Shown piece by piece: positions 5,543 through 38,842 of a stretch of 42,229 nucleotides of DNA (position 1 is the first letter of the stretch; each line of letters starts with the position of its first letter). The notes beneath the pieces were generated by a model that did not search any database, was not told where the DNA came from, and saw only the letters and a list, made by a program, of their open reading frames with translations. The DNA comes from an uncultured Verrucomicrobiota bacterium. Its GTDB lineage: Bacteria > Verrucomicrobiota > Verrucomicrobiia > JAWXBN01. Both the position numbers and the translations under genes were made by a program. The DNA lies in assembly GCA_964435715.1 (NCBI GenBank), contig CAYTAI010000005.1, forward strand, positions 10,190 to 52,418, in the 5' to 3' direction.

Positions 5543-6781
5543 TTGCATGGGTGGCGGGAATGTCCTATAAGTAACAGAACTGTGTCAAAGAAAATTCAAA
5601 GAATCAGTCCGGTTGCCCGTCACGTGCAAAATATTCCACGTTCGGGGATTCGTGATTTTTTTGAAATTGTCTCGACGATGCAGGATGTGATTTCCCTCGG
5701 GATCGGAGAGCCGGATTTTGTCACGCCGTGGCATATTCGTGAATCCGCGATTTACGCGCTTGAAAGAGGGCGCACGAGCTACACATCAAATCTGGGCTTG
5801 CTCAAATTGCGCCGCGAGATCACCCGTTATGTGGGGCAAAATTTCCAAGTGTCCTACAATCCCGGAACCGAGGTGATAGTCACGGTCGGTGTTTCCGAAG
5901 CAATGGACATTGCCATCCGCGCGCTGACTGATCCGGGAGACGAGATCATTTATCACGAGCCCTGTTATGTGTCATACAGTCCGACAATCCGGCTGGCTCA
6001 TGGGATTCCGGTTCCTGTTCCCACGACCGCAGCGGAAGGTTGGTCGGTGACTGCGGATAAAATCGCCCGGGCAATCACGCCCAAATCCAAGATTTTGATT
6101 TTGAATTTTCCGACCAATCCGACGGGTGGCACGATGGAGCTTTCCGAGCTCGAAAAAATCGCGGCTCTCTGCCGGGAGCATGATCTCATCTGTCTCTCGG
6201 ACGAGATATATTCGGAGCTCACCTACGAGGGGCAACACGTCTCCATTTCTTCCCTGCCGGGCATGAAAGATAGAACTGTTTTCCTCCACGGATTTTCAAA
6301 AGCCTTTGCCATGACGGGATTCCGGATCGGATACGCCTGTGCCCCGCCTGAAATCACAGAGGCGATGATGCGCGTGCATCAGTACTCGATGCTTTGCGCG
6401 CCCATTATCAGTCAAGAGGCGGCCTTTGAGGCTCTGGTCAATGGGGCGGACAATGTTGCCCGGATGCGGGACGATTATCATGCGCGCCGGGATTTTATTG
6501 TGAACTCTTTTAACTCCATGGGGATGAAATGCATGATGCCGCGGGGCGCTTTTTATGCTTTCCCCTGGATCGGATTGACCGGGCTGAAATCACATGATTT
6601 TGCCATCAATCTCTTGAAAACGCAGAAAGTCGCTGTCGTGCCCGGCAACGCCTTTGGTGAGGGGGGCGAAGGATTCGTCCGCTGCTCCTACTCCACTGCG
6701 CTTGACAAGATTGAGCTGGCTGTTGAAAGGCTCGGGCGCTTTCTGGAAGCATATCGAAAACACTCCCATTCCGCGGCCTGA
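5543..6781 (+). CDS. Class I/II PLP-dependent aminotransferase (aspartate/aromatic type)
   Basis: 412 aa. GIRDFF...ISLGIGEPDF, NPTG, and the Schiff-base lysine context FSKAFAMTGFRIGY. GTG 5582 is a possible alternative start. Confidence 0.85.
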   Translation: MHGWRECPISNRTVSKKIQRISPVARHVQNIPRSGIRDFFEIVSTMQDVISLGIGEPDFVTPWHIRESAIYALERGRTSYTSNLGLLKLRREITRYVGQNFQVSYNPGTEVIVTVGVSEAMDIAIRALTDPGDEIIYHEPCYVSYSPTIRLAHGIPVPVPTTAAEGWSVTADKIARAITPKSKILILNFPTNPTGGTMELSELEKIAALCREHDLICLSDEIYSELTYEGQHVSISSLPGMKDRTVFLHGFSKAFAMTGFRIGYACAPPEITEAMMRVHQYSMLCAPIISQEAAFEALVNGADNVARMRDDYHARRDFIVNSFNSMGMKCMMPRGAFYAFPWIGLTGLKSHDFAINLLKTQKVAVVPGNAFGEGGEGFVRCSYSTALDKIELAVERLGRFLEAYRKHSHSAA

Positions 6782-6796
6782 CCTCCCCCCTTTTTC

Positions 6797-7654
6797 ATGA
6801 TTGATCCTCTTATTCTAAATTCATCCGAGGGAGTCCTCGACTACGCCCGTCAAACGTGTCGGGAGCTTTTTAATGCTGAAATTTCTCCCACGGTCGTGGA
6901 TACATTTTCTTTCGTGTCGGATATGTTCGCCGGAAAAGGAAAGCGTTTTCAAGCGATTGATTTGAAGTTTCATGATCTTGAGCATAGTCTGCGCGCGGCG
7001 GCGGCGATGATTTGTCTGATGCGCGGCATCAACCTCCATCACAATGTCAAAAATATCATCACGAAAGAGGTTTTTGAGACAGGGGTGATGGCGGTTCTCT
7101 TTCATGATTCCGGGTATCTGCGGCCGCGGGGGAAAAAAGACGGCTCCGGGGCAGTCTATACCAGTATCCATGTCGAACGCAGTTGCCGCATCATAGCGGA
7201 TTATTTTCAAGAGACCGGATTACCCCACAAAACACAGTGTGCCGCGAGTAATATGATTCTTTGCACGGGATTGAACCTGGATACAGGCATTATCCCGTTT
7301 CAGTCCGAACCGGAGAAAATGGCGGGGTTCGCCCTCGGCACGGGCGATTTGCTCGGGCAAATGTCCGATCCCGATTATATCCGCAAGTTGCCTTTTCTCT
7401 TCGAGGAATTCGACGAGGCGCACCGTTACGACCCGGATGATGACGTCACGCCGTCATTTGCCAGTGTCAACCACATGATCTCCAATACACCGAAGTTTTA
7501 CCGGGATTACGTCCTGAAAATTTTTGATGCCCAGCTCGGGGGTGTTTATCGCTACCTGAATGAGCCCTGTCCCGGCGGGTCAAATGCTTATATCCTCGCC
7601 ATTGAAAAAAATATTTCAGCGATTGAAACTCTTTTGTCGAACCCGGATCAATGA
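6797..7654 (+). CDS. HD-domain-like metal-dependent phosphohydrolase (tentative)
   Basis: 285 aa. FHDLEHSL followed by VLFHDSGYL matches the H...HD...D spacing of HD-superfamily proteins. No further identification. Confidence 0.45.
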   Translation: MIDPLILNSSEGVLDYARQTCRELFNAEISPTVVDTFSFVSDMFAGKGKRFQAIDLKFHDLEHSLRAAAAMICLMRGINLHHNVKNIITKEVFETGVMAVLFHDSGYLRPRGKKDGSGAVYTSIHVERSCRIIADYFQETGLPHKTQCAASNMILCTGLNLDTGIIPFQSEPEKMAGFALGTGDLLGQMSDPDYIRKLPFLFEEFDEAHRYDPDDDVTPSFASVNHMISNTPKFYRDYVLKIFDAQLGGVYRYLNEPCPGGSNAYILAIEKNISAIETLLSNPDQ

Positions 7655-10971: not shown

Positions 10972-11508
10972 TCAGAATGGATTTTTCATGTCCGGGGGGA
11001 GGTCAACGTCGAAGGCGGTGATGATCCGGGCGATCATGGTGTAGAATCCGGTCAGGACAACGATCTCAATGATTCCCTGCACGCCGATTTTGGCGGTTAA
11101 CTTTTTCTGGAGCGGGGCGGGAATGGATTTGCCCGCGAGGGCAAATTGCGCGGCGCGGAGCGCGGGGGTCAGCGGGGAGCGCGGCGGGAGCGATTTGCCC
11201 CGGCGAATGACCTCGATGAGGCTCTCGGGAACACCATTGTCCCGCGCATGCTGCACATGATGATCCCATTCATACGCCACCTGGAGCTTCTGCGAGGACA
11301 GCAGGATCACCGCCTCGCGGATGTCGCCGGGCAATTTGCTCTCAAAGCGCAGGAATGTTCCCAGCCGGCTGACGGATTCCGCCAAGTCCGGATGATTGAG
11401 CAACGTGCGATACATGCCGTCCACGCGGCCCCGCTTTTTCATCAGGGCGGCGAGGAGTTTGCGCGCTTTGGGATTCGCGGATTGTGTGGGGTCGGGCAGT
11501 TTTGCCAT
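10972..11508 (-). CDS. Carboxymuconolactone decarboxylase (AhpD-like) family protein
   Basis: Start taken at ATG 11508 (MAKLPDP...). MYRTLLNHPDLAESV...REAVILLSSQKLQVAYEWDHHVQHA fits the CMD/AhpD-like pattern. Confidence 0.65.
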   Translation of the reverse strand: MAKLPDPTQSANPKARKLLAALMKKRGRVDGMYRTLLNHPDLAESVSRLGTFLRFESKLPGDIREAVILLSSQKLQVAYEWDHHVQHARDNGVPESLIEVIRRGKSLPPRSPLTPALRAAQFALAGKSIPAPLQKKLTAKIGVQGIIEIVVLTGFYTMIARIITAFDVDLPPDMKNPF

Positions 11509-11536
11509 GACGGGAGGAGGTCGGTTGATTGTTTTT

Positions 11537-13255
11537 CTAATCGTGATCGGTCCATTCCTTTGCGGACTGGGCAAAGGGCGCGACGGGCGTTTTAAAATCG
11601 CGTCCGCAACGGATGTCCAGCAGCACCGGGCCATCATGGTCGCGCGCCTGCTCGAATGCCGTAATGAGAGAGCCGGGTTCCGTCACCGTGATGCCGTGAA
11701 GGCCCAGGGAACGCGCGAACCCCGCCCAGTCGTGGGTGGGATTCTCCGTCAGGCGCGTGGGGGTCGGCCCCATGGTTTTGGCGCGGAGATAGACATTGCC
11801 CAGCGCGCTGTTATTGATCAGCACAAAGATGACTTTCACGCCGAAGCGCGCGGCGGTTTGAATCTCGATGCCGTGCATGAGCATGCATCCGTCGCCCGTG
11901 ACGACCACATGGGGTTTGTCCGGCTGGGCGAGCTTGGCACCGATGGCGGCGGGAATCGCCCAGCCCATCGGCCCGAGATTGGTCGCGGAGATGTATTCAC
12001 GCGGGGCGTAGGACTCCCAGTAATGCCCTGCAAAAGCGCGGTGCGCGCCCGAGTCCACGAGCATGACGGTATTCCTCGGCATGACCTTGCGGAGATCGGC
12101 GATGACCCGCGCCGGATGAATCGGGTTCGCGTCGCTGGCCATATTCTCCGCGTCGTAAAGGCGCGGCCCCGAGGCGCGAATCCGTGCCATCCACGCCTCA
12201 CGATCCGCGGCTCCTGCGGCGAGGGCGGCGGCGGCAGAATCATCAGCGCCGACAAAGCGGAGGAATTCCCCACAGTCGCCCACGACGGGAAGCTCCGTGT
12301 GGTAAGTGCGCCCGATGCTCAAGGCGTCATTATCGACATGAATCAAAGCTTTGGACGGGCGGAATTTCCCGCTCCAAAAAAGCGTGTCACGCTGGTTCAG
12401 TCCGGAGCCCAGCACGATGAGGGTTTCCACCTCATCGGAAAGAATCGTCTCGATGGCGTGACGGGTTCCACTGTAACCAAATATTCCCAGAGCCAGGGGA
12501 TGATCCTCGGGAAAAACGCCTTTGGCGCGGAGGGTCGTCGCCACGGGAATCCGGAATCTCTCCGCGAAAGCCAGCAGGCCGCCGGAGGCTTCGGATTTCT
12601 CAATGCCCGCACCCGCCAGAATGACCACCTTGCGCGTTTGCCCGAGAACCGGCGCAAATTGCTTCGCCGCCTGAATGTCCAAGAGCCGCGGGGTCGCCAA
12701 TGAGGCGGGCAGTTTCCCATAGACGAAGTCCACATCGGCATTCTGAATATTTTTCGGCAGCACCAGATGAACCGGCTTGTGCGGGGTGGAGAGCATCCGG
12801 GTCATGAGCCGGTGGAGATCGAATTTCAGGAGGCGAATGTCATCGACGCAGAGTTCATCGGCTGTGACCGTGCGAAGAATGTCCACATCGTCGTAGGAGG
12901 CCGCACTGGAGTCTTGGAATCCGCCGCGCCCATCCCAGTCGGTGGGCACCTGCCCGCTCATCAGGAGCAGGGGAAATTCATCCGTCAGCGCGGTCGCCAG
13001 AGCGGTGACGGCATTTGTGATGCCCGGCCCGCCGATGCAGAAACACACGCCGAATTTTCCACTGCCACGGGCGTAACCATCCGCCATGTAAGCCGCCCCG
13101 GACTCATGCGCCGCGACAATCGGGGCAACCCCCGGCACCCGGTCGAATGCGGACAGGAATGGGTCGATCAACCCGCCCGGAACCATGAAAATGTGTGTGA
13201 TCCCCTCGGTTTTGACAGCTTGAACGATGTAATCGGTTGTTTTCATGAAATACAC
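11537..13255 (-). CDS. Thiamine-pyrophosphate-dependent enzyme (acetolactate synthase large-subunit-like)
   Basis: 572 aa. N-terminal TPP-pyrimidine domain: GITHIFMVPGG...HESGAAYMADGYAR. C-terminal TPP-binding motif: GDGCMLMHGIEIQTAARFGVKVIFVLINNSALG. Substrate not assignable. Confidence 0.85.
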   Translation of the reverse strand: MYFMKTTDYIVQAVKTEGITHIFMVPGGLIDPFLSAFDRVPGVAPIVAAHESGAAYMADGYARGSGKFGVCFCIGGPGITNAVTALATALTDEFPLLLMSGQVPTDWDGRGGFQDSSAASYDDVDILRTVTADELCVDDIRLLKFDLHRLMTRMLSTPHKPVHLVLPKNIQNADVDFVYGKLPASLATPRLLDIQAAKQFAPVLGQTRKVVILAGAGIEKSEASGGLLAFAERFRIPVATTLRAKGVFPEDHPLALGIFGYSGTRHAIETILSDEVETLIVLGSGLNQRDTLFWSGKFRPSKALIHVDNDALSIGRTYHTELPVVGDCGEFLRFVGADDSAAAALAAGAADREAWMARIRASGPRLYDAENMASDANPIHPARVIADLRKVMPRNTVMLVDSGAHRAFAGHYWESYAPREYISATNLGPMGWAIPAAIGAKLAQPDKPHVVVTGDGCMLMHGIEIQTAARFGVKVIFVLINNSALGNVYLRAKTMGPTPTRLTENPTHDWAGFARSLGLHGITVTEPGSLITAFEQARDHDGPVLLDIRCGRDFKTPVAPFAQSAKEWTDHD

Positions 13256-28436: not shown

Positions 28437-29822
28437 TTACTCCCCGGTATTTTGACCAAAAAGCTCTTCCCGGATTTGTTTGGGATGTTTTTCGATGGGA
28501 GCCAGCTCGGGGATGTCTTCACCGTCTTTGGTGATCCCGAGTTCCTTGAAGCGTCGGACGCTGGGGTAATAGCTCCGCTCCAGTGAACCCACCGCGTCAT
28601 TGTATTTTCCGACGGCTTGACCGAGTTCCTTGCCCACGTCGGCAAAATGTTTGGTCAACGTTCCGATGCGCGCATAGAGTTCCTGACCCAACTGGGAAAT
28701 GGCGCGCGCATTTTCCGCGATTTTCTCTTGGCGCCAGCCGTAATGAACCGCTTTCAAAAGTGCGATCAATGTCGTCGGCGTGGCGAGGATGACTTTATTC
28801 TCCAGCGCACCACTCTCCAGTAGCTGCGGGTCTTGCTCCAGCGCCGCACTGAAATAGGATTCGCCGGGTAGGAAAAGCACGACAAATTCCGGACTCGGTG
28901 CAAATTGCTCGAAATAAGCTTTGCTCCCGAGCTGGCGCATGTGGGTGCGAATCTGCTCTGCGTGCTCGCGGAGTTTGCCCAACCGCAGGTTTTCGTCCTT
29001 GGCCTCGACCGCATCGAGATAGGCGGCCAGCGGGGTTTTTGCGTCCACGATGATATTCCGGCCATTGGGCAGGCGGACGATCATATCCGGGCGGAGCCGA
29101 CCCTCGTCGGTGGTCACATTCTCCTGAGTCTGGAAATCACAATACTCGACCATGCCCGCGACCTCGACGACACGTTTGAGCTGGAGTTCGCCCCAGCGTC
29201 CGCGCACATCGGGTTTGCGCAGGGCGGTGACGAGATTCCCAGTTTGCTCGTGGAGTTTGCTCTGTGTGTCGGCGAGTTGGGCAACCTGCTGGCGGAGTCC
29301 TTCGTAAGCGCCAACGCGCTCTTTTTCGAGAGCCTGAATTTTTTCGTCGAATTTCGACAAGGTTTCCCGCACGGGTGTGACCATCTGGGCAATGGCTTGC
29401 TGACGTTTCTCAAGATCACCTTTGGCGGATTCACGGAAACTCTCCATCGTTTGTTTGGCGAGATCGAGAAAGGACTGGTTGTTTTTTTGAAGAGCCTCGG
29501 AGGACAATGCCTTGAAAGCGTCGGACAATTTGCTCTGGGCTTCATTCAGCAGAGCCATTTGCTCCACGACACGCCGCCTTTCATTTTCCAGATCGGCTCC
29601 CATCTGCGCCATTTGCTCCCGGGCCGAGGCAAGTTGCGCGGCGGTCTGGCTGTGCGCGGCTTTCTCCGCGGCAAATTGCTCCTGCTCCCGCGCAATTTGC
29701 GCGGCCTTTTCCCGGAGCTCCGCCGCGAGCGAAGCAATTTGCGCCTGAGCACGCCCGCGCAAAAAGCCCCACGCCAGAGCCACTCCAACCAAAAACGCAA
29801 TGATGACCGGGATATATTCCAT
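28437..29822 (-). CDS. rmuC: DNA recombination protein RmuC
   Basis: 461 aa. N-terminal TM helix, long Ala/Gln/Glu coiled coil, then the RmuC nuclease-like core: RPDMIVRLPNGRNIIVDAKTPLAAY...FVVLFLPGESYFSAAL...ILATPTTLIALLKAV. Confidence 0.88.
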   Translation of the reverse strand: MEYIPVIIAFLVGVALAWGFLRGRAQAQIASLAAELREKAAQIAREQEQFAAEKAAHSQTAAQLASAREQMAQMGADLENERRRVVEQMALLNEAQSKLSDAFKALSSEALQKNNQSFLDLAKQTMESFRESAKGDLEKRQQAIAQMVTPVRETLSKFDEKIQALEKERVGAYEGLRQQVAQLADTQSKLHEQTGNLVTALRKPDVRGRWGELQLKRVVEVAGMVEYCDFQTQENVTTDEGRLRPDMIVRLPNGRNIIVDAKTPLAAYLDAVEAKDENLRLGKLREHAEQIRTHMRQLGSKAYFEQFAPSPEFVVLFLPGESYFSAALEQDPQLLESGALENKVILATPTTLIALLKAVHYGWRQEKIAENARAISQLGQELYARIGTLTKHFADVGKELGQAVGKYNDAVGSLERSYYPSVRRFKELGITKDGEDIPELAPIEKHPKQIREELFGQNTGE

Positions 29823-30007
29823 TTCACCCCCACTCTAACCAATCCCCCGCGCAATTTGCCAGCCCCGATTTTTTCCGGCATGCGTTTCATTACACAAGAA
29901 TAACTACAGACAGCATTGTATTACGGGGCAAGACTCAGACAGAACAAGACACACATTTGTGTAGAGCAATAAGCTTGCATGCAGAATGCTTCAACATATT
30001 TGTTCGA

Positions 30008-30724
30008 TTACGAGGTTTCACTGTTTGAACACTCTGTTGCTGATGAGTTTTGCACTACAGGCTGTGAACTAATTAAATAATCCTGTCGCTGAAGATAAGA
30101 TTTGATGTTATACAAAGTTTTGGATAGAATCTCAATAGTTTGTATTTGAGCAAGTTCCAAGTCGGACGGAGAGGCATTTCTCCCAACATCAGCAAACGAT
30201 TTAACTCCGTGGGCAAGATCATTACGCGCATTTTTTACTGTCTGAAGCATCCAGTATTTACCCTCTGGCGCAGCAAAGCCAAAACGATTCGCAGTCGATC
30301 TAATCATCCTTGCATCCAAATTGCCCCCAAAAGTTTCAGTACATTCAAATGTTTCATGAACGATATCCCGCGCAAGCGAGAAAAGCTTTGGGAGCAACTT
30401 GTCTATGTCGCGCCTCTTGAAATTTTTTAAAATCTCCCGACGCAACTCCTCTCGACAGCGATCATAACTTGCCTGCTTTTCTTTTAACTCATCAAAAATA
30501 GCTTCAATTGCATTTCGCATTGTAGATTCGACTAAGTTGTAAAGAAGCAAATAACATGTGGCTTTAAATGTCTTAAGCAACTCCTCATCTTCGTGATTTG
30601 AGCAACCACCAGTATCATCCTTTACTTGCAAAGCAACCTCCTTCTTTGCCAGACGAAGAACGAACCGAAAGAAACCTTCAACTTCTTTTGATCGAGTTTC
30701 AAAATCGATGATTACAGAATTCAT
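30008..30724 (-). CDS. HEPN-domain protein (MAE_28990/MAE_18760-like predicted RNase)
   Basis: 238 aa, all-helical flavour. Rx4H motif R167-N-D-L-A-H172 (KNARNDLAHG, encoded at 30209-30226). YLLLYNLVESTMRNAIEAIF resembles that HEPN family as I remember it. ATGA overlap with the DUF262 gene. Confidence 0.65.
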   Translation of the reverse strand: MNSVIIDFETRSKEVEGFFRFVLRLAKKEVALQVKDDTGGCSNHEDEELLKTFKATCYLLLYNLVESTMRNAIEAIFDELKEKQASYDRCREELRREILKNFKRRDIDKLLPKLFSLARDIVHETFECTETFGGNLDARMIRSTANRFGFAAPEGKYWMLQTVKNARNDLAHGVKSFADVGRNASPSDLELAQIQTIEILSKTLYNIKSYLQRQDYLISSQPVVQNSSATECSNSETS

Positions 30725-31809
30725 GAGACAGTTCCTAGAAGGCGATCACGAACATACTCAATACGAAGCTTAACGCGTGGCTTCGAATTGCTAGAATCCG
30801 ATGTTGTTAATTCGCGAAACTCATCACTCTCTGACCAATCTTCCGTGGAGGGAGGTATCAAATTAGGATTCTCTCGCAATGCCAACGCAACACCCACAGA
30901 AATCGCTTCGTAACGAACACGTTTTGCTGTTCGAAAATTTCGACGACGGAATCCTTTATTAGGAAAATATTTTTCAACGAATTGCAACATGCTGTCATAC
31001 TCTTTCCACATAGCTTTTTCATCGAAACCGTTGTTTTTTTCCTTTACATATAAATCAAGAAATTCTTTTACGCTCTTGTCAAAATCCAAATAACGCTCTG
31101 CATATGCAAAGAATCGGAGAGCAAACTCTTCGCGCTCTCTTCGTTTGATGTATGAAGGGGAAAGAGGCGCGAGCTTATGTAATAACGGATGTGCCGCGCA
31201 TTTTTCAATGAAAGTTACGAATGGTCCACGCATGATTCCACGACGTTGTTCCATATCTCGGAGCGGATCGCTTCCTGTGTTGATTCTCTCAAATAAATCG
31301 CGCCGCGTTTCTTCGTCCGCTTCGTCCGAAAGAGCTATGATTCGAATTGTGGTTCGATTAAACTTTCTTTGTCGAACAAGCGGTAGCTGATCAAATGTAG
31401 GGCCATTTAGTAAAGGCAGTTTTTCAAGACCACCAAGAACCATTCTTCCAGAAGAAAATTCCGTTAGTGTTCGAATACGTTGCGAACCATCCACAATTTC
31501 AAGCCTGCCCTCTTCATCTTCGACCTCCGCCAAAAACAAAAACGGAATTGGTAATCCAATCAACACTGACTCAATAAACTTCGACTTTCTCTTTTCATCC
31601 CATGTATGATCGCGTTGATAATCTGGAATATAAAATTCCGCTTTACTTTCTGCTATATTTTGTTCTTCGCCTTCCCCCATATATTTTGAAACTATAACCT
31701 CAATGGGATATTCGATTATATTGTAATCAACTACTTTCCTATGCTCTTCAATTTGAGCTTCAGCCTCTTCAGTATTGAGTTGAGGCAAGTTAGGTTGTTG
31801 TGCGGGCAT
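30721..31809 (-). CDS. DUF262 (ParB/Srx-fold, GmrSD N-terminal-like) domain protein lacking a DUF1524 nuclease domain
   Basis: 362 aa. IPDYQRDHTWDEKRKSKFIESVLIGLPIPFLFL (the DUF262 'YQR..W' motif), then EIVDGSQRIRTL (the DGQQR-type motif). I recognise no His-Me/HNH motif in the C-terminal helical part. Confidence 0.75.
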   Translation of the reverse strand: MPAQQPNLPQLNTEEAEAQIEEHRKVVDYNIIEYPIEVIVSKYMGEGEEQNIAESKAEFYIPDYQRDHTWDEKRKSKFIESVLIGLPIPFLFLAEVEDEEGRLEIVDGSQRIRTLTEFSSGRMVLGGLEKLPLLNGPTFDQLPLVRQRKFNRTTIRIIALSDEADEETRRDLFERINTGSDPLRDMEQRRGIMRGPFVTFIEKCAAHPLLHKLAPLSPSYIKRREREEFALRFFAYAERYLDFDKSVKEFLDLYVKEKNNGFDEKAMWKEYDSMLQFVEKYFPNKGFRRRNFRTAKRVRYEAISVGVALALRENPNLIPPSTEDWSESDEFRELTTSDSSNSKPRVKLRIEYVRDRLLGTVS

Positions 31810-31811
31810 TG

Positions 31812-32918
31812 TTATCCTTTCAACTTCAGTTGTTCGAGATGTAATTGAATTGTTTTGCCAACCACTTCACCCAATCGAACAGGCACGGCATTGCCTATCA
31901 TTCGTCCGATAGTTTTGAAGCTGAAGTCCTCGCCGTCTCTGACAAATTTGTAATTTTTGGGGAAAGATTGAAGAATCGCACCTTCACGCAGGGAGATGGC
32001 GCGGTTTTGCTCAGGATGACCGAAACGTCCGTTACCATAGCCATAGAATTGGGTGGTAATAGTTGGAGAGGGTTTGTCCCATTCCATGCGCGCATAAACA
32101 CCTGAGTAACTTTTACCTGACTTTTTCTTGTGACACTCGGCAACCAACCTCTCTGGCCAATCGCGCCATGTGCCACCAGGTCGAGAATGGCGAATTCGTC
32201 GGAGATTTAGAGGAGAAAGTGCACTGGTGCGATGCATTGGGTCATGAGGATGAGTTTCTCCGGATTCAAGTGGCGGTAACGAGCGCAAGGCATCGGCAAC
32301 GTTACGATATTTATTAGGTTTATGCGTGGGCGGAATCAATTCAATCGGGCCAAGTCGCGAAGCAATGACCACGACACGGCTACGGTGTTGGGGGATGCCG
32401 TAATCTGGGCAATAAATCACCCTTTGACCAGCATCCTTATTAAAATAAAAACCCTCATTGGTGAGCGTCGCGAGAAAAGAAGCGAAGACAGGGTAGCGTT
32501 GAAGCTCGGGAACGTTCTCCATCGAAACGATATCTGGCTGAAGTTCTCTCACAAGTCGGGAAAAATGGTTGAGCAGCGTCCACTTGGGATCATTCTCGTT
32601 GTCGAGCCCCTGAGTATACTTGGAGAACGTCTGACAAGGAGCACAACCAACCAAAACTTTGATACAACCCACGGGATAGTGCGTGGCAAGCTCGTCTCCA
32701 GGGAGTTCGGTCACGCTTTTTTGAAAAAACTGAGCGGGTTGATTGTTGTGCTCATAGGGAAACTGACAGGCGGGATCAATGTCGTAACCGGCAGCGACTT
32801 CAATTCCGGCATCAAGCAATCCATGTGTTAGGCCGCCAGCACCACAAAAAAGATCGACAGCAACGGCTTTCACCTTGCTAGGTTTGTGCATGAATGATTT
32901 CCCTCGGGCGTATTTCAT
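31812..32918 (-). CDS. DNA (cytosine-5)-methyltransferase
   Basis: 368 aa. Motif I DLFCGAGGL, motif IV GCAPCQTFS (catalytic Cys), motif VI SMENVPEL, motif VIII QHRSRVVVIA, motif IX REGAILQSFP, motif X GNAVPV. Alternative start at ATG 32891. There is a 2-nt spacer to the DUF262 gene. Confidence 0.92.
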   Translation of the reverse strand: MKYARGKSFMHKPSKVKAVAVDLFCGAGGLTHGLLDAGIEVAAGYDIDPACQFPYEHNNQPAQFFQKSVTELPGDELATHYPVGCIKVLVGCAPCQTFSKYTQGLDNENDPKWTLLNHFSRLVRELQPDIVSMENVPELQRYPVFASFLATLTNEGFYFNKDAGQRVIYCPDYGIPQHRSRVVVIASRLGPIELIPPTHKPNKYRNVADALRSLPPLESGETHPHDPMHRTSALSPLNLRRIRHSRPGGTWRDWPERLVAECHKKKSGKSYSGVYARMEWDKPSPTITTQFYGYGNGRFGHPEQNRAISLREGAILQSFPKNYKFVRDGEDFSFKTIGRMIGNAVPVRLGEVVGKTIQLHLEQLKLKG

Positions 32919-33145
32919 AAGTTGTTTTTAAATGGTTATGCAACTCCAAAGCTGTTCTACCGTCAAAGTCCATAGTCATACAACGACTCGGTTTTACATG
33001 AGTGAATAAAAACAGTAAAGTCTGAAGAAACAGCAAAACACCAAACGATTCACTGGGTGCAGGAGTCCATTTTGACATAGCTAAGCTGGGGCGTTGGATA
33101 AAAATTGAACTTGCAAGGCTGGATTCAGGGCGTACGTTATTGCGT

Positions 33146-33388
33146 ATGAAAACGATTTCATCGACATTGGCGCGGACGAACCTCTACAGGGTCATTGATT
33201 CGACACTCGAAGCTCATGAGCCGATCCAGATCACGGGCAAGCGCGGCAATGCCATATTGATTTCCGAAGCGGATTGGAGGGCGATTCAAGAGACTTTACA
33301 TTTGGTCAGTATCCCCGGCATGCGCGATTCGATCCTCGCTGGCATGGCTGAACCAGTCGAGAAGTGCGGCAAGAAGATTGATCTATGA
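33146..33388 (+). CDS. yefM: Phd/YefM-family antitoxin
   Basis: Start at ATG 33146 gives 80 aa. ISSTLARTNLYRVIDSTLEAHEPIQITGKRGNAILISEADWRAIQETLHL is a close fit to YefM. ATGA overlap with the toxin gene. Confidence 0.85.
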   Translation: MKTISSTLARTNLYRVIDSTLEAHEPIQITGKRGNAILISEADWRAIQETLHLVSIPGMRDSILAGMAEPVEKCGKKIDL

Positions 33389-33648
33389 GTTACGAGCTGG
33401 TTTATGCCCGACAAGCCAGGAAGGATGCCAAGAAGCTCAAGGGTACTCCGCTTGCAAAGAGGGCAAAGGAACTGCTTGAGATAATTCAAGAGAATCCATT
33501 TGCCGATCCGCCTCCATTTGAAGTGCTGGTCGGTGATTTGAAGGGGGCATACTCGAGACGGATCAATATTCAGCACAGATTGGTTTACGAGGTTTTTGCT
33601 GATAAAAAAATGGTAAAAGTCCTTCGGCTGTGGACACACTATGAATAA
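33385..33648 (+). CDS. yoeB: Txe/YoeB-family toxin (ribosome-dependent mRNA interferase)
   Basis: 87 aa. ARKDAKKL...NPFADPPPFEVLVGDLKGAYSRRINIQHRLVYEV...VKVLRLWTHYE carries the YoeB hallmarks (YSRRIN..HRLVY, C-terminal W.HY). Confidence 0.88.
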   Translation: MSYELVYARQARKDAKKLKGTPLAKRAKELLEIIQENPFADPPPFEVLVGDLKGAYSRRINIQHRLVYEVFADKKMVKVLRLWTHYE

Positions 33649-36845: not shown

Positions 36846-37406
36846 GTGAAAAATATTGTTCTCATCGGATTCATGGGTTCGGGAAAATCCACGGTCGGAC
36901 GCCGGGTCGCGCAGCGCTTGGGCTGGGATTTTATTGACACGGATCATTGGATCGAGGCCCGGGAGGGAATGCCTGTGAGCAAAATTTTTGAAACGAAAGG
37001 GGAGTCCGGTTTCCGCGATTTGGAGACCCGGGTGCTGGCTGAGGCTCTGGCGCATCCCCACGCGGTCGTGTCCACCGGGGGCGGGGCAATCTTGAACCCG
37101 GACAATTTGCGCGCGATTCTGGAGCGGAGCCATGCGGTGTGCCTGTGGATGACACCCGAGGAAGCCTACGCGCGAACCCGGCATCACACGCACCGCCCGC
37201 TCTTGCAGACGGCTGATCCCCTGGCGCGCATCCGCGAGATCATGGAGCAACGCGAGCCGCTCTATCGCCAAGCCCATTACATTATTGATACGACAGGCCG
37301 CGGAATCCCCGACATCTGTGAGTCCATCTTGCGTTACGTCCAGCATCGTGATACGGAGAATGCGGCGACACCGGAGCCTTTGCCCGCGCCGGACAAAAAC
37401 GGATAA
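36846..37406 (+). CDS. aroK: Shikimate kinase
   Basis: 186 aa, GTG start. Walker A is LIGFMGSGKSTVGR. Then DTD, FRDLE and STGGGA motifs. Confidence 0.9.
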   Translation: MKNIVLIGFMGSGKSTVGRRVAQRLGWDFIDTDHWIEAREGMPVSKIFETKGESGFRDLETRVLAEALAHPHAVVSTGGGAILNPDNLRAILERSHAVCLWMTPEEAYARTRHHTHRPLLQTADPLARIREIMEQREPLYRQAHYIIDTTGRGIPDICESILRYVQHRDTENAATPEPLPAPDKNG

Positions 37407-37432
37407 CTTTTTTTAAAAACAGAATACAAGCC

Positions 37433-38842
37433 ATGCCAGAATCCTTGCCCACTGCCGATGCTGCCGCTCCCGCGTATGATCCCGGCGCCGTCGCTGCAAA
37501 GCAGCTCCATGACGAGGTCGTCCGCACCCGCCGCCGCCGGCTCCTGCCGCGTGCCTTGGTGGTGGGAATCCTCGCGGGCTTGCTGGGTGTGGCTTTCCGT
37601 GTGGCGCTGGAATGGAGCGGTCGCGCGCGGGGCAAATCGCTCGCGTGGCTCCAGGAAACTCTCGGTGTCTGGGGCATGGCAGTGCCCGTTCTCTTCTGTG
37701 CGGTGGCGTGCGGGGTCGCGGTGTATCTGGTGAAACGATTTGCTCCGGAGGCAGCGGGCAGCGGCATCCCGCATGTCAAAGCCGTCATTACCGGGCTGCG
37801 CCCGATGCGCTGGATTCGCACGACTTTGGTGAAGTTTTTCGGCGGGCTCCTCGCCATCGGCTCCGGCATGGCTCTCGGGCGCGAGGGACCGACCGTGCAA
37901 ATGGGCGCGGCGATGGGGCAGCTCACCGGCGAGAAAAGCGGCAGTGGCGGGATGGAGCGTCAAACCCTTGTCTCCTCCGGCGCGGCGGCGGGATTGACCG
38001 CCGCATTCAATGCGCCCTTTGCAGGCATCCTTTTTGTCATCGAGGAGCTCCACGGCAAGATCACGCCAAATACTTTTTTCGGTGCCTTCATCGCGTGTAT
38101 CGCGGCGGACACGGTGATGCGTTTGATCCTCGGACAGACACCGTATTTCGGGATGATGAGTTTCGAGTTGTTGCCCTTGGGCGTTTTGCCCGCCTTCATA
38201 TTGCTCGGAGTTTTGGCGGGGTGGGGCGGTGTTTTGTTTAACAAATTGCTCGTCCGCTCAATGGATTTTTTTGCGAAGGCACGCCATTTGCCCGCGTGGT
38301 GGGGCGGGGCGGCGGTGGGCGCGGGCATCGGGTTGACGGGATGGTTCCTCCCGGAGACATTGGGCGATGGACAGGATTTGTGGCAGGGGATGTTCGCGAT
38401 TGAATACTCCTTTGCAGCGATTGGATTTTTATTTGTCCTGCGTTTTGTCATGAGCATTCTGTGTTACGGCACGGGTGCTCCGGGCGGGATATTTGCCCCG
38501 ATCCTGGTGCTGGGAGGATTCATGGGTCTCGCCACGGGAATGCTGGTGCAGATTTTCTGGCCGGGAGCCGGGGTGCATCCCGCTCTTTTTGCGGTGGCGG
38601 GCATGGGCGCATTTCTCGTCGGCAGTGTGCGCGCACCGCTGACGGCGATCATGCTTATCGTGGAGATGAGCGGGGATTACAATCTCATCCTGCCCCTGCT
38701 GGTCGCCTGTCTCTCGGCGTATGCCGCCGCGGAAGCAACGGGGGACAAAGCCATTTACGAGGCTCTGCTGGAGCGTGACATCAAACGCAGTGCCGCGGCG
38801 CAAGAGTCCGCTGCGGTGCTGCCGGCAGGGGAAAAGCAATGA
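37433..38842 (+). CDS. clcA: ClC-family H+/Cl- exchange transporter
   Basis: 469 aa. Selectivity-filter motifs GSGIPHV, GREGPTVQ (gating Glu) and GGIFAPIL, plus NAPFAGILFVIEEL. Confidence 0.88.
   Translation: MPESLPTADAAAPAYDPGAVAAKQLHDEVVRTRRRRLLPRALVVGILAGLLGVAFRVALEWSGRARGKSLAWLQETLGVWGMAVPVLFCAVACGVAVYLVKRFAPEAAGSGIPHVKAVITGLRPMRWIRTTLVKFFGGLLAIGSGMALGREGPTVQMGAAMGQLTGEKSGSGGMERQTLVSSGAAAGLTAAFNAPFAGILFVIEELHGKITPNTFFGAFIACIAADTVMRLILGQTPYFGMMSFELLPLGVLPAFILLGVLAGWGGVLFNKLLVRSMDFFAKARHLPAWWGGAAVGAGIGLTGWFLPETLGDGQDLWQGMFAIEYSFAAIGFLFVLRFVMSILCYGTGAPGGIFAPILVLGGFMGLATGMLVQIFWPGAGVHPALFAVAGMGAFLVGSVRAPLTAIMLIVEMSGDYNLILPLLVACLSAYAAAEATGDKAIYEALLERDIKRSAAAQESAAVLPAGEKQ

Follow-up and report, generated by a model that had tools for sequence, protein, structure and literature searches.

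Can a DNA methyltransferase serve an effector predicted to cut RNA in place of a restriction endonuclease? The question is raised by a locus in a 42,229-nucleotide (nt) stretch of contig CAYTAI010000005.1 from an uncultured Verrucomicrobiota bacterium (the window; unless a locus handle is given, coordinates are positions of this whole stretch), where the minus strand carries three closely packed open reading frames (ORFs) encoding a C5 cytosine DNA methyltransferase (MTase), a DUF262 protein and a HEPN protein (Table 1). The initial annotation, made from the sequence, had described the three as one packed unit and suggested that DUF262 and HEPN stand in for the restriction enzyme beside a protective MTase. 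The ORF coordinates bear out the packing, as do the junctions read from the sequence, a TAAcaATG spacer between MTase and DUF262 (ggaTAAcaATGccc) and an ATGA overlap of 4 nt between DUF262 and HEPN (tctcATGAattc). All the motifs it had named in the three proteins are present where it had placed them, and its C5-MTase, DUF262 and HEPN assignments proved correct by Pfam, all above gathering thresholds. The window locus alone adds only one more family member; the new evidence is a comparative pattern, in which an obligate DUF262-HEPN pair is accompanied by a facultative MTase from a promiscuous clade with swappable effectors.

A HEPN profile search of about 185,000 species-representative genomes returned relatives in 353 of them, and 80 loci were examined together with 53 viral contigs from IMG/VR; the family is also found on plasmids and in an E. 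coli P2 prophage hotspot and is thus widespread. DUF262 lies immediately upstream of HEPN at 79 of the 80 genome loci and at all 53 viral loci (132/133), the one exception ending at a contig edge. The spacing between the DUF262 stop and the HEPN start, taken over 120 loci, is most often -4 nt (41 loci), with a median of 1 nt, and 98% of the values fall within ±30 nt. DUF262 and HEPN are thus an obligate pair, and since the same adjacency recurs at so many genome and viral loci, the adjacency within the trio is beyond chance.

The MTase is linked to this pair frequently but not obligately, and through one MTase clade. An orthologous C5 MTase (50-78% identity) adjoins the pair at 38 of the 60 evaluable genome loci and on 48 of the 53 viral contigs, where most of the exceptions reach a contig edge, so the co-occurrence of homologues that the initial annotation had proposed as a check holds for the pair and, less strictly, for the MTase. 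Two gene orders are found: non-cyanobacteria, the window included, have MTase>DUF262>HEPN and cyanobacteria have DUF262>HEPN<MTase; because the same MTase occurs in both, the linkage has survived rearrangement. Where the genes run co-directionally at other loci, a median of 7 nt separates the MTase stop from the expected start of DUF262, and the three proteins co-diverge (Spearman 0.65-0.74 between pairwise-identity matrices).

The trio is also horizontally mobile, carried on phages, in prophage defence hotspots and on plasmids. Besides the viral contigs, we found it on a Klebsiella plasmid, on a Rhodococcus megaplasmid and in 7 of 5426 complete E. coli genomes, there within P2-like prophages, in the interval that separates the portal gene from the replication endonuclease gene and is known as a defence hotspot (PMC9519451). 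In the window, the GC content is 0.41 over the trio against about 0.53 in the flanks, marking a low-GC island. No gene flanking the window trio recurs at any other locus, and because flanking genes never travel with them, the three genes form a self-contained mobile module. A defence role is supported by this genomic context, namely the P2 hotspot, the plasmids and the low-GC island. In PGAP annotation the three genes are named "DNA cytosine methyltransferase", "DUF262 domain-containing protein" and "MAE_28990/MAE_18760 family HEPN-like nuclease". One phage record (Peduovirus P24B2, NC_049387, locus L081, 1994-3041) has the C5 MTase annotated as its N-terminal 234 aa (amino acids) only. Loss of the MTase in this phage was considered and rejected, as E. 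coli 181.1 has the same DNA apart from a 1-nt indel, annotated there as a full 348-aa MTase; a frameshift introduced into the phage record during sequencing or annotation is the probable cause of the truncation.

The survey was also run from the MTase, using 80 metagenomic orthologues (50-74% identity), 58 of them with enough downstream sequence to be evaluated. DUF262 and HEPN lie beside the MTase in only 17 of these 58. Elsewhere the clade is paired with GHKL ATPases, Vsr, DISARM proteins, a Z1-domain protein or a ResIII and endonuclease protein (Table 1), and MTases with different partners interleave in sequence space. Most trio-linked MTases are less similar to the window MTase than are the ResIII-linked MTase (74% identity) and GHKL-linked ones (65-69%). 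Because the partners vary and the MTases interleave, the MTase is, as judged from these comparisons, a general-purpose modification module of the restriction-modification (R-M) type, for which DUF262 and HEPN are one of several interchangeable effector modules. At other loci a restriction or effector module stands in the position that the pair takes here. The proposal that it takes the place of a restriction enzyme therefore gains comparative support from a clade that elsewhere accompanies REBASE-type restriction proteins, DISARM helicases and Vsr, and the partner-swap pattern offers what we consider the strongest evidence for R-M-like logic. The GHKL partners (HATPase_c_3) occur among loci L142-L216, for example at L143:1357-3021, L150:5046-7085 and L176:5032-7029, and appear to be MORC-like restriction components that form a family with differing C-termini; in the L142 protein, the C-terminal region also matches PADLOC spbK at 2e-16.

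If the pair occupies a restriction slot, which of its two proteins would act on DNA? The DUF262 protein matches Pfam GmrSD_N (DUF262) at 2.1e-25, above the gathering threshold and over residues 55-190 only, with YQRDHTW at residue 64 and DGSQR at residue 107. The QR..W, DGSQR and FxxxN motifs, as defined previously (PMC12065111), are the nucleoside triphosphate (NTP)-binding motifs and are invariant across an alignment of 44 DUF262 sequences. An AlphaFold model built from 44 homologues (predicted local distance difference test score, pLDDT, 84.1) has an alpha/beta ParB-like N-terminal domain, followed by a C-terminal half that DSSP assigns as helices only, mostly at pLDDT >88. A Foldseek search of the PDB with this model returned Noc, ParB, KorB, sulfiredoxin, BrxU and SspE, and thus the modelled protein is similar to ParB/Noc clamps gated by NTP and to the sensor halves of BrxU and SspE. 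In PADLOC, its residues 60-355 match NsnA at 9e-53 (PDLC03877), outscoring the match to PD-T4-2_A at 4.2e-28 (PDLC04027), in which residues 62-351 align to positions 56-355 of a 363-position model. No DUF1524 or other nuclease domain was matched in Pfam, with no match of any kind past residue 190, and no nuclease fold was returned by Foldseek; the absence of a DUF1524/His-Me nuclease, noted in the initial annotation, thus stands by Pfam, AlphaFold and Foldseek alike.

These features bear on the possibility that the locus is a genuine R-M system backed by a suicide mechanism, in which DUF262 itself cuts or nicks unmethylated DNA and HEPN is an abortive-infection (Abi) RNase that fires when restriction fails, the "RM+Abi" arrangement of Anantharaman, Makarova and Vassallo. 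The ParB-like partner was called a "ParB nuclease" in the 2013 catalogue (PMC3710099), and Makarova et al. (2013; PMC3632139), who reported COG1479/DUF262 fused to HEPN and to other nucleases, proposed a programmed-cell-death module joined to DNA modification systems. PD-lambda-5 has been described by its authors as a compacted RM+Abi system (PMC9519451), and the N-terminal region of the window DUF262 protein matches a REBASE-derived REase_II model at 3.6e-10. However, in GmrSD, BrxU, SspE and GrwA cleavage resides in DUF1524, with DUF262 acting as the NTPase and sensor, the motifs that are invariant in the family are the NTP-binding ones, and no metal-nuclease fold was seen in the Foldseek search of the PDB. 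We therefore regard a DNA-cutting DUF262 as improbable.

The HEPN protein matches Pfam HEPN_MAE_28990 (PF18737) at 5.4e-28, above the gathering threshold, and more weakly HEPN_RiboL-PSP at 2.5e-6. The arginine and histidine of its Rx4H motif are conserved at the aligned positions at all readable genome and viral loci, and the AlphaFold model is all-alpha (pLDDT 71.9). The reading we favour, to which we give an even chance, is that of an R-M-like module in which detection of unmethylated DNA by DUF262 turns on the HEPN RNase. The C5 MTase would mark the host's own DNA, and DUF262, combining a ParB-like NTPase with a helical DNA-binding domain, would be an NTP-dependent sensor of the methylation state of the MTase sites. 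Translational coupling would give DUF262 and HEPN a fixed stoichiometry, and the two probably form a complex. When the sensor meets unmethylated incoming DNA, the HEPN RNase would be activated and would cut RNA, either phage transcripts or host tRNA, rRNA or mRNA, so that infection is stopped, probably with growth arrest. We infer that the two proteins form a complex, that the methyl mark is read, that HEPN is activated and not inhibited, and that RNA is the target. The favoured reading is supported by experimental precedent, since PD-T4-2 and PD-lambda-5 both protect E. coli. A broader form of the idea, which we put forward more tentatively and think somewhat doubtful, is that the restriction arm of an R-M cassette has been replaced by an RNA-level effector: an NTP-gated ParB-like clamp would read absent 5-methylcytosine (m5C) and allosterically activate a HEPN RNase, converting DNA self/non-self recognition into RNA cleavage or abortive infection, with one methylase backbone serving DNase, helicase and RNase effectors alike as a universal adaptor.

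Several observations weigh against a methylation-gated RNase. There is no MTase inside 7 kb at 22 of the 60 evaluable genome loci, mostly in Microcoleus, Lyngbya, Trichodesmium and Okeania; their neighbours are housekeeping genes, with no alternative DNA MTase adjacent, and at 12 of the 22 (15 counting contig-limited loci) DUF262 is full length with an intact DGxQR. PD-T4-2 protects against T4 without an MTase, and therefore the pair can fire without a cognate methyl mark. On the effector side, a Foldseek search of the PDB with the HEPN model gave nothing under E = 0.1, a HEPN toxin ranking 26th at E = 1.4, and in PADLOC the protein matched no family at E<=1, PD-T4-2_B included. As the structural fold search was not significant, the HEPN call is profile-based, resting on the sequence profile and the invariant Rx4H. 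From the MTase sequence no target could be deduced, the conserved block that might be taken for a target recognition domain (TRD) being generic to the clade whatever the partner. Finally, in the literature searched, no biochemical evidence for any family member and no mechanistic study of PD-T4-2 or MAE_28990 was found.

The loci without an MTase also bear on the role of DUF262. In the other 10 of the 22, DUF262 is truncated or disrupted, usually leaving the N-terminal ~178 residues, and the NTP-binding motifs of the truncated copies are often degenerate (YGQR, YGQH, DGPR; FxxxQ), while the neighbouring HEPN retains R167 and H172. MTase loss and DUF262 decay are associated at a nominal Fisher p = 3e-4, a statistic that ignores phylogeny, and the link, which rests largely on one cyanobacterial clade, counts as a further weakness of the favoured reading. 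Because HEPN is intact beside decayed DUF262 in the Microcoleus clade, the pattern fits DUF262 acting as an activator of HEPN and not as an antitoxin or restraint. In Microcoleus and relatives, nine loci (L034, L037, L047, L048, L054, L055, L059, L069 and L075, at ~6350-6890) carry a conserved ~177-aa, N-terminal-only DUF262 with HEPN RNDLAH intact and no MTase nearby, and this short form could be decaying slowly or could be a derived variant of two genes that lacks the DNA-binding domain. In one Microcoleus genome the DUF262 gene is seemingly split by a ~2-kb insertion (L031:3879-4061 and 6129-6995). Two marine cyanobacterial loci without an MTase have a second, partial HEPN C-terminal fragment (query ~132-220, 38-48% identity) just downstream of the full HEPN (L023:7824-8006 and L063:7718-7984).

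Might the pair and the MTase then be two independent modules? The pair would be of PD-T4-2 type with another trigger, for example hypermodified phage DNA, as for GmrSD, or a phage protein, and the MTase would be a separate passenger, whether an orphan or anti-restriction methylase that shields the mobile element or what is left of an R-M system after displacement of its nuclease. PD-T4-2 functions without an MTase and was selected on T4. The DNA of T4 is hypermodified. Intact pairs without an MTase occur in 12-15 species, and the MTase clade is promiscuous, with the pair beside less than a third of its evaluable orthologues. In addition, GmrSD, BrxU and GrwAB recognise modified DNA through their DUF262 domains (PMC12137116). 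Against independence, the same MTase clade is linked to the pair in two independent gene orders and on nearly all viral contigs, co-directional MTase stops lie 2-7 nt from the DUF262 start, the three proteins co-diverge, and DUF262 tends to decay where the MTase has been lost. Weighing both sides, we consider independent modules unlikely.

Another trigger would be a foreign mark instead of a missing one. In a Type IV-like arrangement, DUF262 would recognise foreign methylated or hypermodified DNA and activate HEPN, with the MTase having another specificity and being irrelevant or a decoy. Most characterised DUF262 proteins are modification-dependent, and the DUF262 protein of Dazbog is thought to recognise methylated DNA. 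A modification-dependent sensor co-expressed with an active C5 MTase would, however, risk self-targeting, and the pair occupies the effector slot of nucleases that are blocked by modification. We give this arrangement very little credence and retain sensing of unmethylated DNA as the favoured reading.

The MTase that would set the mark appears complete. It matches Pfam DNA_methylase at 6e-51, above the gathering threshold, and NCBIfam dcm above the cutoff, with best PADLOC matches to DrmMII (3.4e-100, PDLC02651) and MTase_II (1e-86). Motifs I, IV, VI, VIII and X are all present, with FCGAGG at residue 24, PCQ at 94, ENV at 134, QHRSR at 177 and GNAVPV at 342. Since its first 17 residues are not conserved (0.08 identity), the true start may be Met10, with the ATG at 32891, to judge from the alignment. 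Residues 226-325 are highly conserved among homologues, and we considered whether they reflect a conserved target specificity. This was rejected, as GHKL-, DISARM- and Vsr-partnered MTases conserve the block just as strongly; motif IX and framework elements alignable to DNMT1 fall within it, and DrmMII enzymes carry different motifs.

The surroundings of the trio were examined for additional components. On one side lies rmuC (28437-29822) and on the other a YefM/YoeB pair (33140-33648), followed by a carbonic anhydrase gene. The absence of any classical restriction endonuclease from the island, another point of the initial annotation, was upheld, with no additional gene between rmuC and the YefM/YoeB pair. 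The latter, on the plus strand and divergent from the MTase in the same lower-GC stretch, comprises a YefM antitoxin (Phd_YefM, 1.1e-15) and a YoeB-like toxin (2e-10) overlapping by 4 nt. Membership of this toxin-antitoxin pair in the module was considered and rejected, since it adjoins the trio at no other locus and is thus a separate neighbour. A scan for promoter and terminator consensus sequences gave nothing beyond the expectation from shuffled sequence, and among signs of island insertion no tRNA, att-like flanking repeat or Rfam match was found. A 66-aa minus-strand ORF (32878-33078) that overlaps the MTase start region has no Pfam match and is probably spurious. Elsewhere in the window, two stretches have a markedly higher GC content than the ~0.53 average (11001-13000, 0.615; 37001-38000, 0.645) and contain long overlapping ORFs on both strands. 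The nearest homologues are from Pedosphaera and other Verrucomicrobiota.

Table 1. Features of the trio in the window, and partners found beside orthologous MTases in the metagenomic survey.
Feature	Position or number of loci	Strand or placement	Description
C5 cytosine DNA methyltransferase	31812..32918	-	368 aa, every catalytic motif; ORF list and Pfam
MTase stop/DUF262 start junction	31807..31814	-	TAAcaATG, 2-nt spacer; read from sequence
DUF262 protein	30721..31809	-	362 aa, NsnA-like architecture, without nuclease domain
ParB/Srx-fold DUF262 NTPase domain	31240..31647	-	residues ~55-190; QR..W (Q65, R66, W70), DGSQR (107-111), FxxxN (F173, N177)
All-helical C-terminal domain	30736..31224	-	residues ~196-358; counterpart of ParBDB domain in NsnA, DndB, GmrSD, SspE
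DUF262 stop/HEPN start overlap	30721..30724	-	ATGA, 4 nt; translational coupling; read from sequence
MAE_28990-family HEPN protein, predicted RNase effector	30008..30724	-	238 aa
HEPN Rx4H active-site motif	30209..30226	-	R167-N-D-L-A-H172, invariant in 25 aligned homologues
Intergenic stretch 5' of operon, presumed promoter region	32919..33139	-	divergent from yefM-yoeB; sole non-coding stretch upstream of MTase
GHKL ATPase	27 loci	downstream of MTase	550-680 aa; REBASE-derived REase_II models, down to 1e-92
Vsr	6 loci	beside MTase	Pfam PF03852
DISARM DrmA/DrmD	3 loci (L162, L179, L186)	beside MTase	PADLOC E = 0
Z1-domain protein	1 locus	beside MTase	Pfam Z1; PADLOC Helicase_II
ResIII + endonuclease protein	1 locus	upstream of MTase	Pfam ResIII and RE_endonuc

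If methylation gating is true, the family would clearly exemplify control of an RNase effector by an epigenetic mark on DNA, and would link the DUF262 sensors of GmrSD, BrxU, SspE, Menshen, Dazbog and PD-T4-2 to R-M logic. The E. coli P2-prophage version, with a full-length MTase (for example in strains 181.1 and 1002W03), is tractable in a standard host; one copy lies in NZ_CP059907 at 503417-506317.

How does the locus compare with known systems? The novelty implied for the trio did not hold: an MAE_28990 HEPN/ParB/DNA methylase operon is already listed in Table 1 of Anantharaman et al. (2013; Biol Direct 8:15, PMC3710099), as a single line without experiment or mechanism. That operon type combines an MAE_28990 HEPN with Rx4-6H (PF18737 derives from that work), an adjacent ParB-superfamily gene and a DNA methylase, and the window locus has all three features. 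There is no structural difference, the window having the co-directional order of non-cyanobacteria; in Microcystis aeruginosa, the species that gave the family its name, the trio is in convergent arrangement (L045). The locus is therefore a further member of a catalogued family and not a new kind of system, and its two-gene core corresponds to the validated PD-T4-2.

PD-T4-2 ("DUF262, HEPN") of E. coli ECOR65 was validated against T4 as a two-gene clone without an MTase, and T4 forms plaques again on the native strain once the system is deleted (Vassallo et al., 2022; PMC9519451). The cloned region (338141-339964) contains two coding sequences only; PD-T4-2A/B correspond to RCO39066.1 and an unannotated coding sequence in QOYX01000002 (338334-339873). 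Shared with the window are the DUF262 and HEPN pair, a PD-T4-2_A match that runs nearly end to end, the lack of DUF1524 and the same two HEPN families, since PD-T4-2B was assigned to HEPN_RiboL-PSP and HEPN_MAE_28990 by HHpred (PMC9519451). PD-T4-2 differs in having no methyltransferase and, because it spans only 1540 bp, a shorter HEPN. Whether the trio matches a named, characterised system, which the initial annotation had raised as grounds for setting its proposal aside, is thus answered in part: the DUF262 protein matches PD-T4-2_A and NsnA, but the HEPN has no PD-T4-2_B match and the MTase is extra. PD-lambda-5 ("ParB/HEPN, methyltransferase"), validated in E. coli with broad protection (PMC9519451), is likewise a single defence unit in which a DNA methyltransferase accompanies a ParB-fold domain and a weak HEPN-like region. 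There, however, one protein of ParBc type, not DUF262, carries both ParB and HEPN as a fusion, and the MTase is Dam-like (MethyltransfD12), not C5; PADLOC gave no profile-level homology of the window proteins to this system.

Li et al. (2025; PMC12065111) describe NsnA as ParB-DUF262 followed by a helical DNA-binding "ParBDB" domain, note that Menshen often lies beside methylases, place PD-T4-2 among uncharacterised DUF262 systems without DUF1524, and ask whether ParB-DUF262 could target non-modified genomes where methylases adjoin. The window DUF262 protein has the NsnA architecture, and NsnA is its best PADLOC match, but it is followed directly by HEPN. Membership in Menshen (NsnABC) was rejected, as 29823-33139 contains no ORF for the ABC/OLD-type ATPase NsnB and NsnC (inPIN plus nuclease) is missing too.

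GmrSD, BrxU and SspE share the N-terminal NTPase sensor domain and the helical middle domain, but have a fused His-Me DNase where the window has a separately encoded HEPN RNase, and membership in the GmrSD family was rejected for want of a C-terminal DUF1524. Type II R-M and DISARM class 2 share the C5-MTase clade at 50-74% identity, with GHKL REase_II, ResIII, Z1, Vsr or DrmA/DrmD neighbours. A classical Type II system was rejected because the MTase motifs are present but the island encodes no nuclease-fold protein, and DISARM class 2 because, next to a DrmMII-type MTase, the island has no DrmA/DrmB/DrmC(/D/E), helicase or phospholipase D genes. The nearest mechanistic analogue is SspABCD-SspE, in which a host DNA-modification module is coupled to a DUF262 reader and effector; in the window the mark would be m5C, as opposed to the phosphorothioate or hypermodified base of SspABCD-SspE and GmrSD-type systems.

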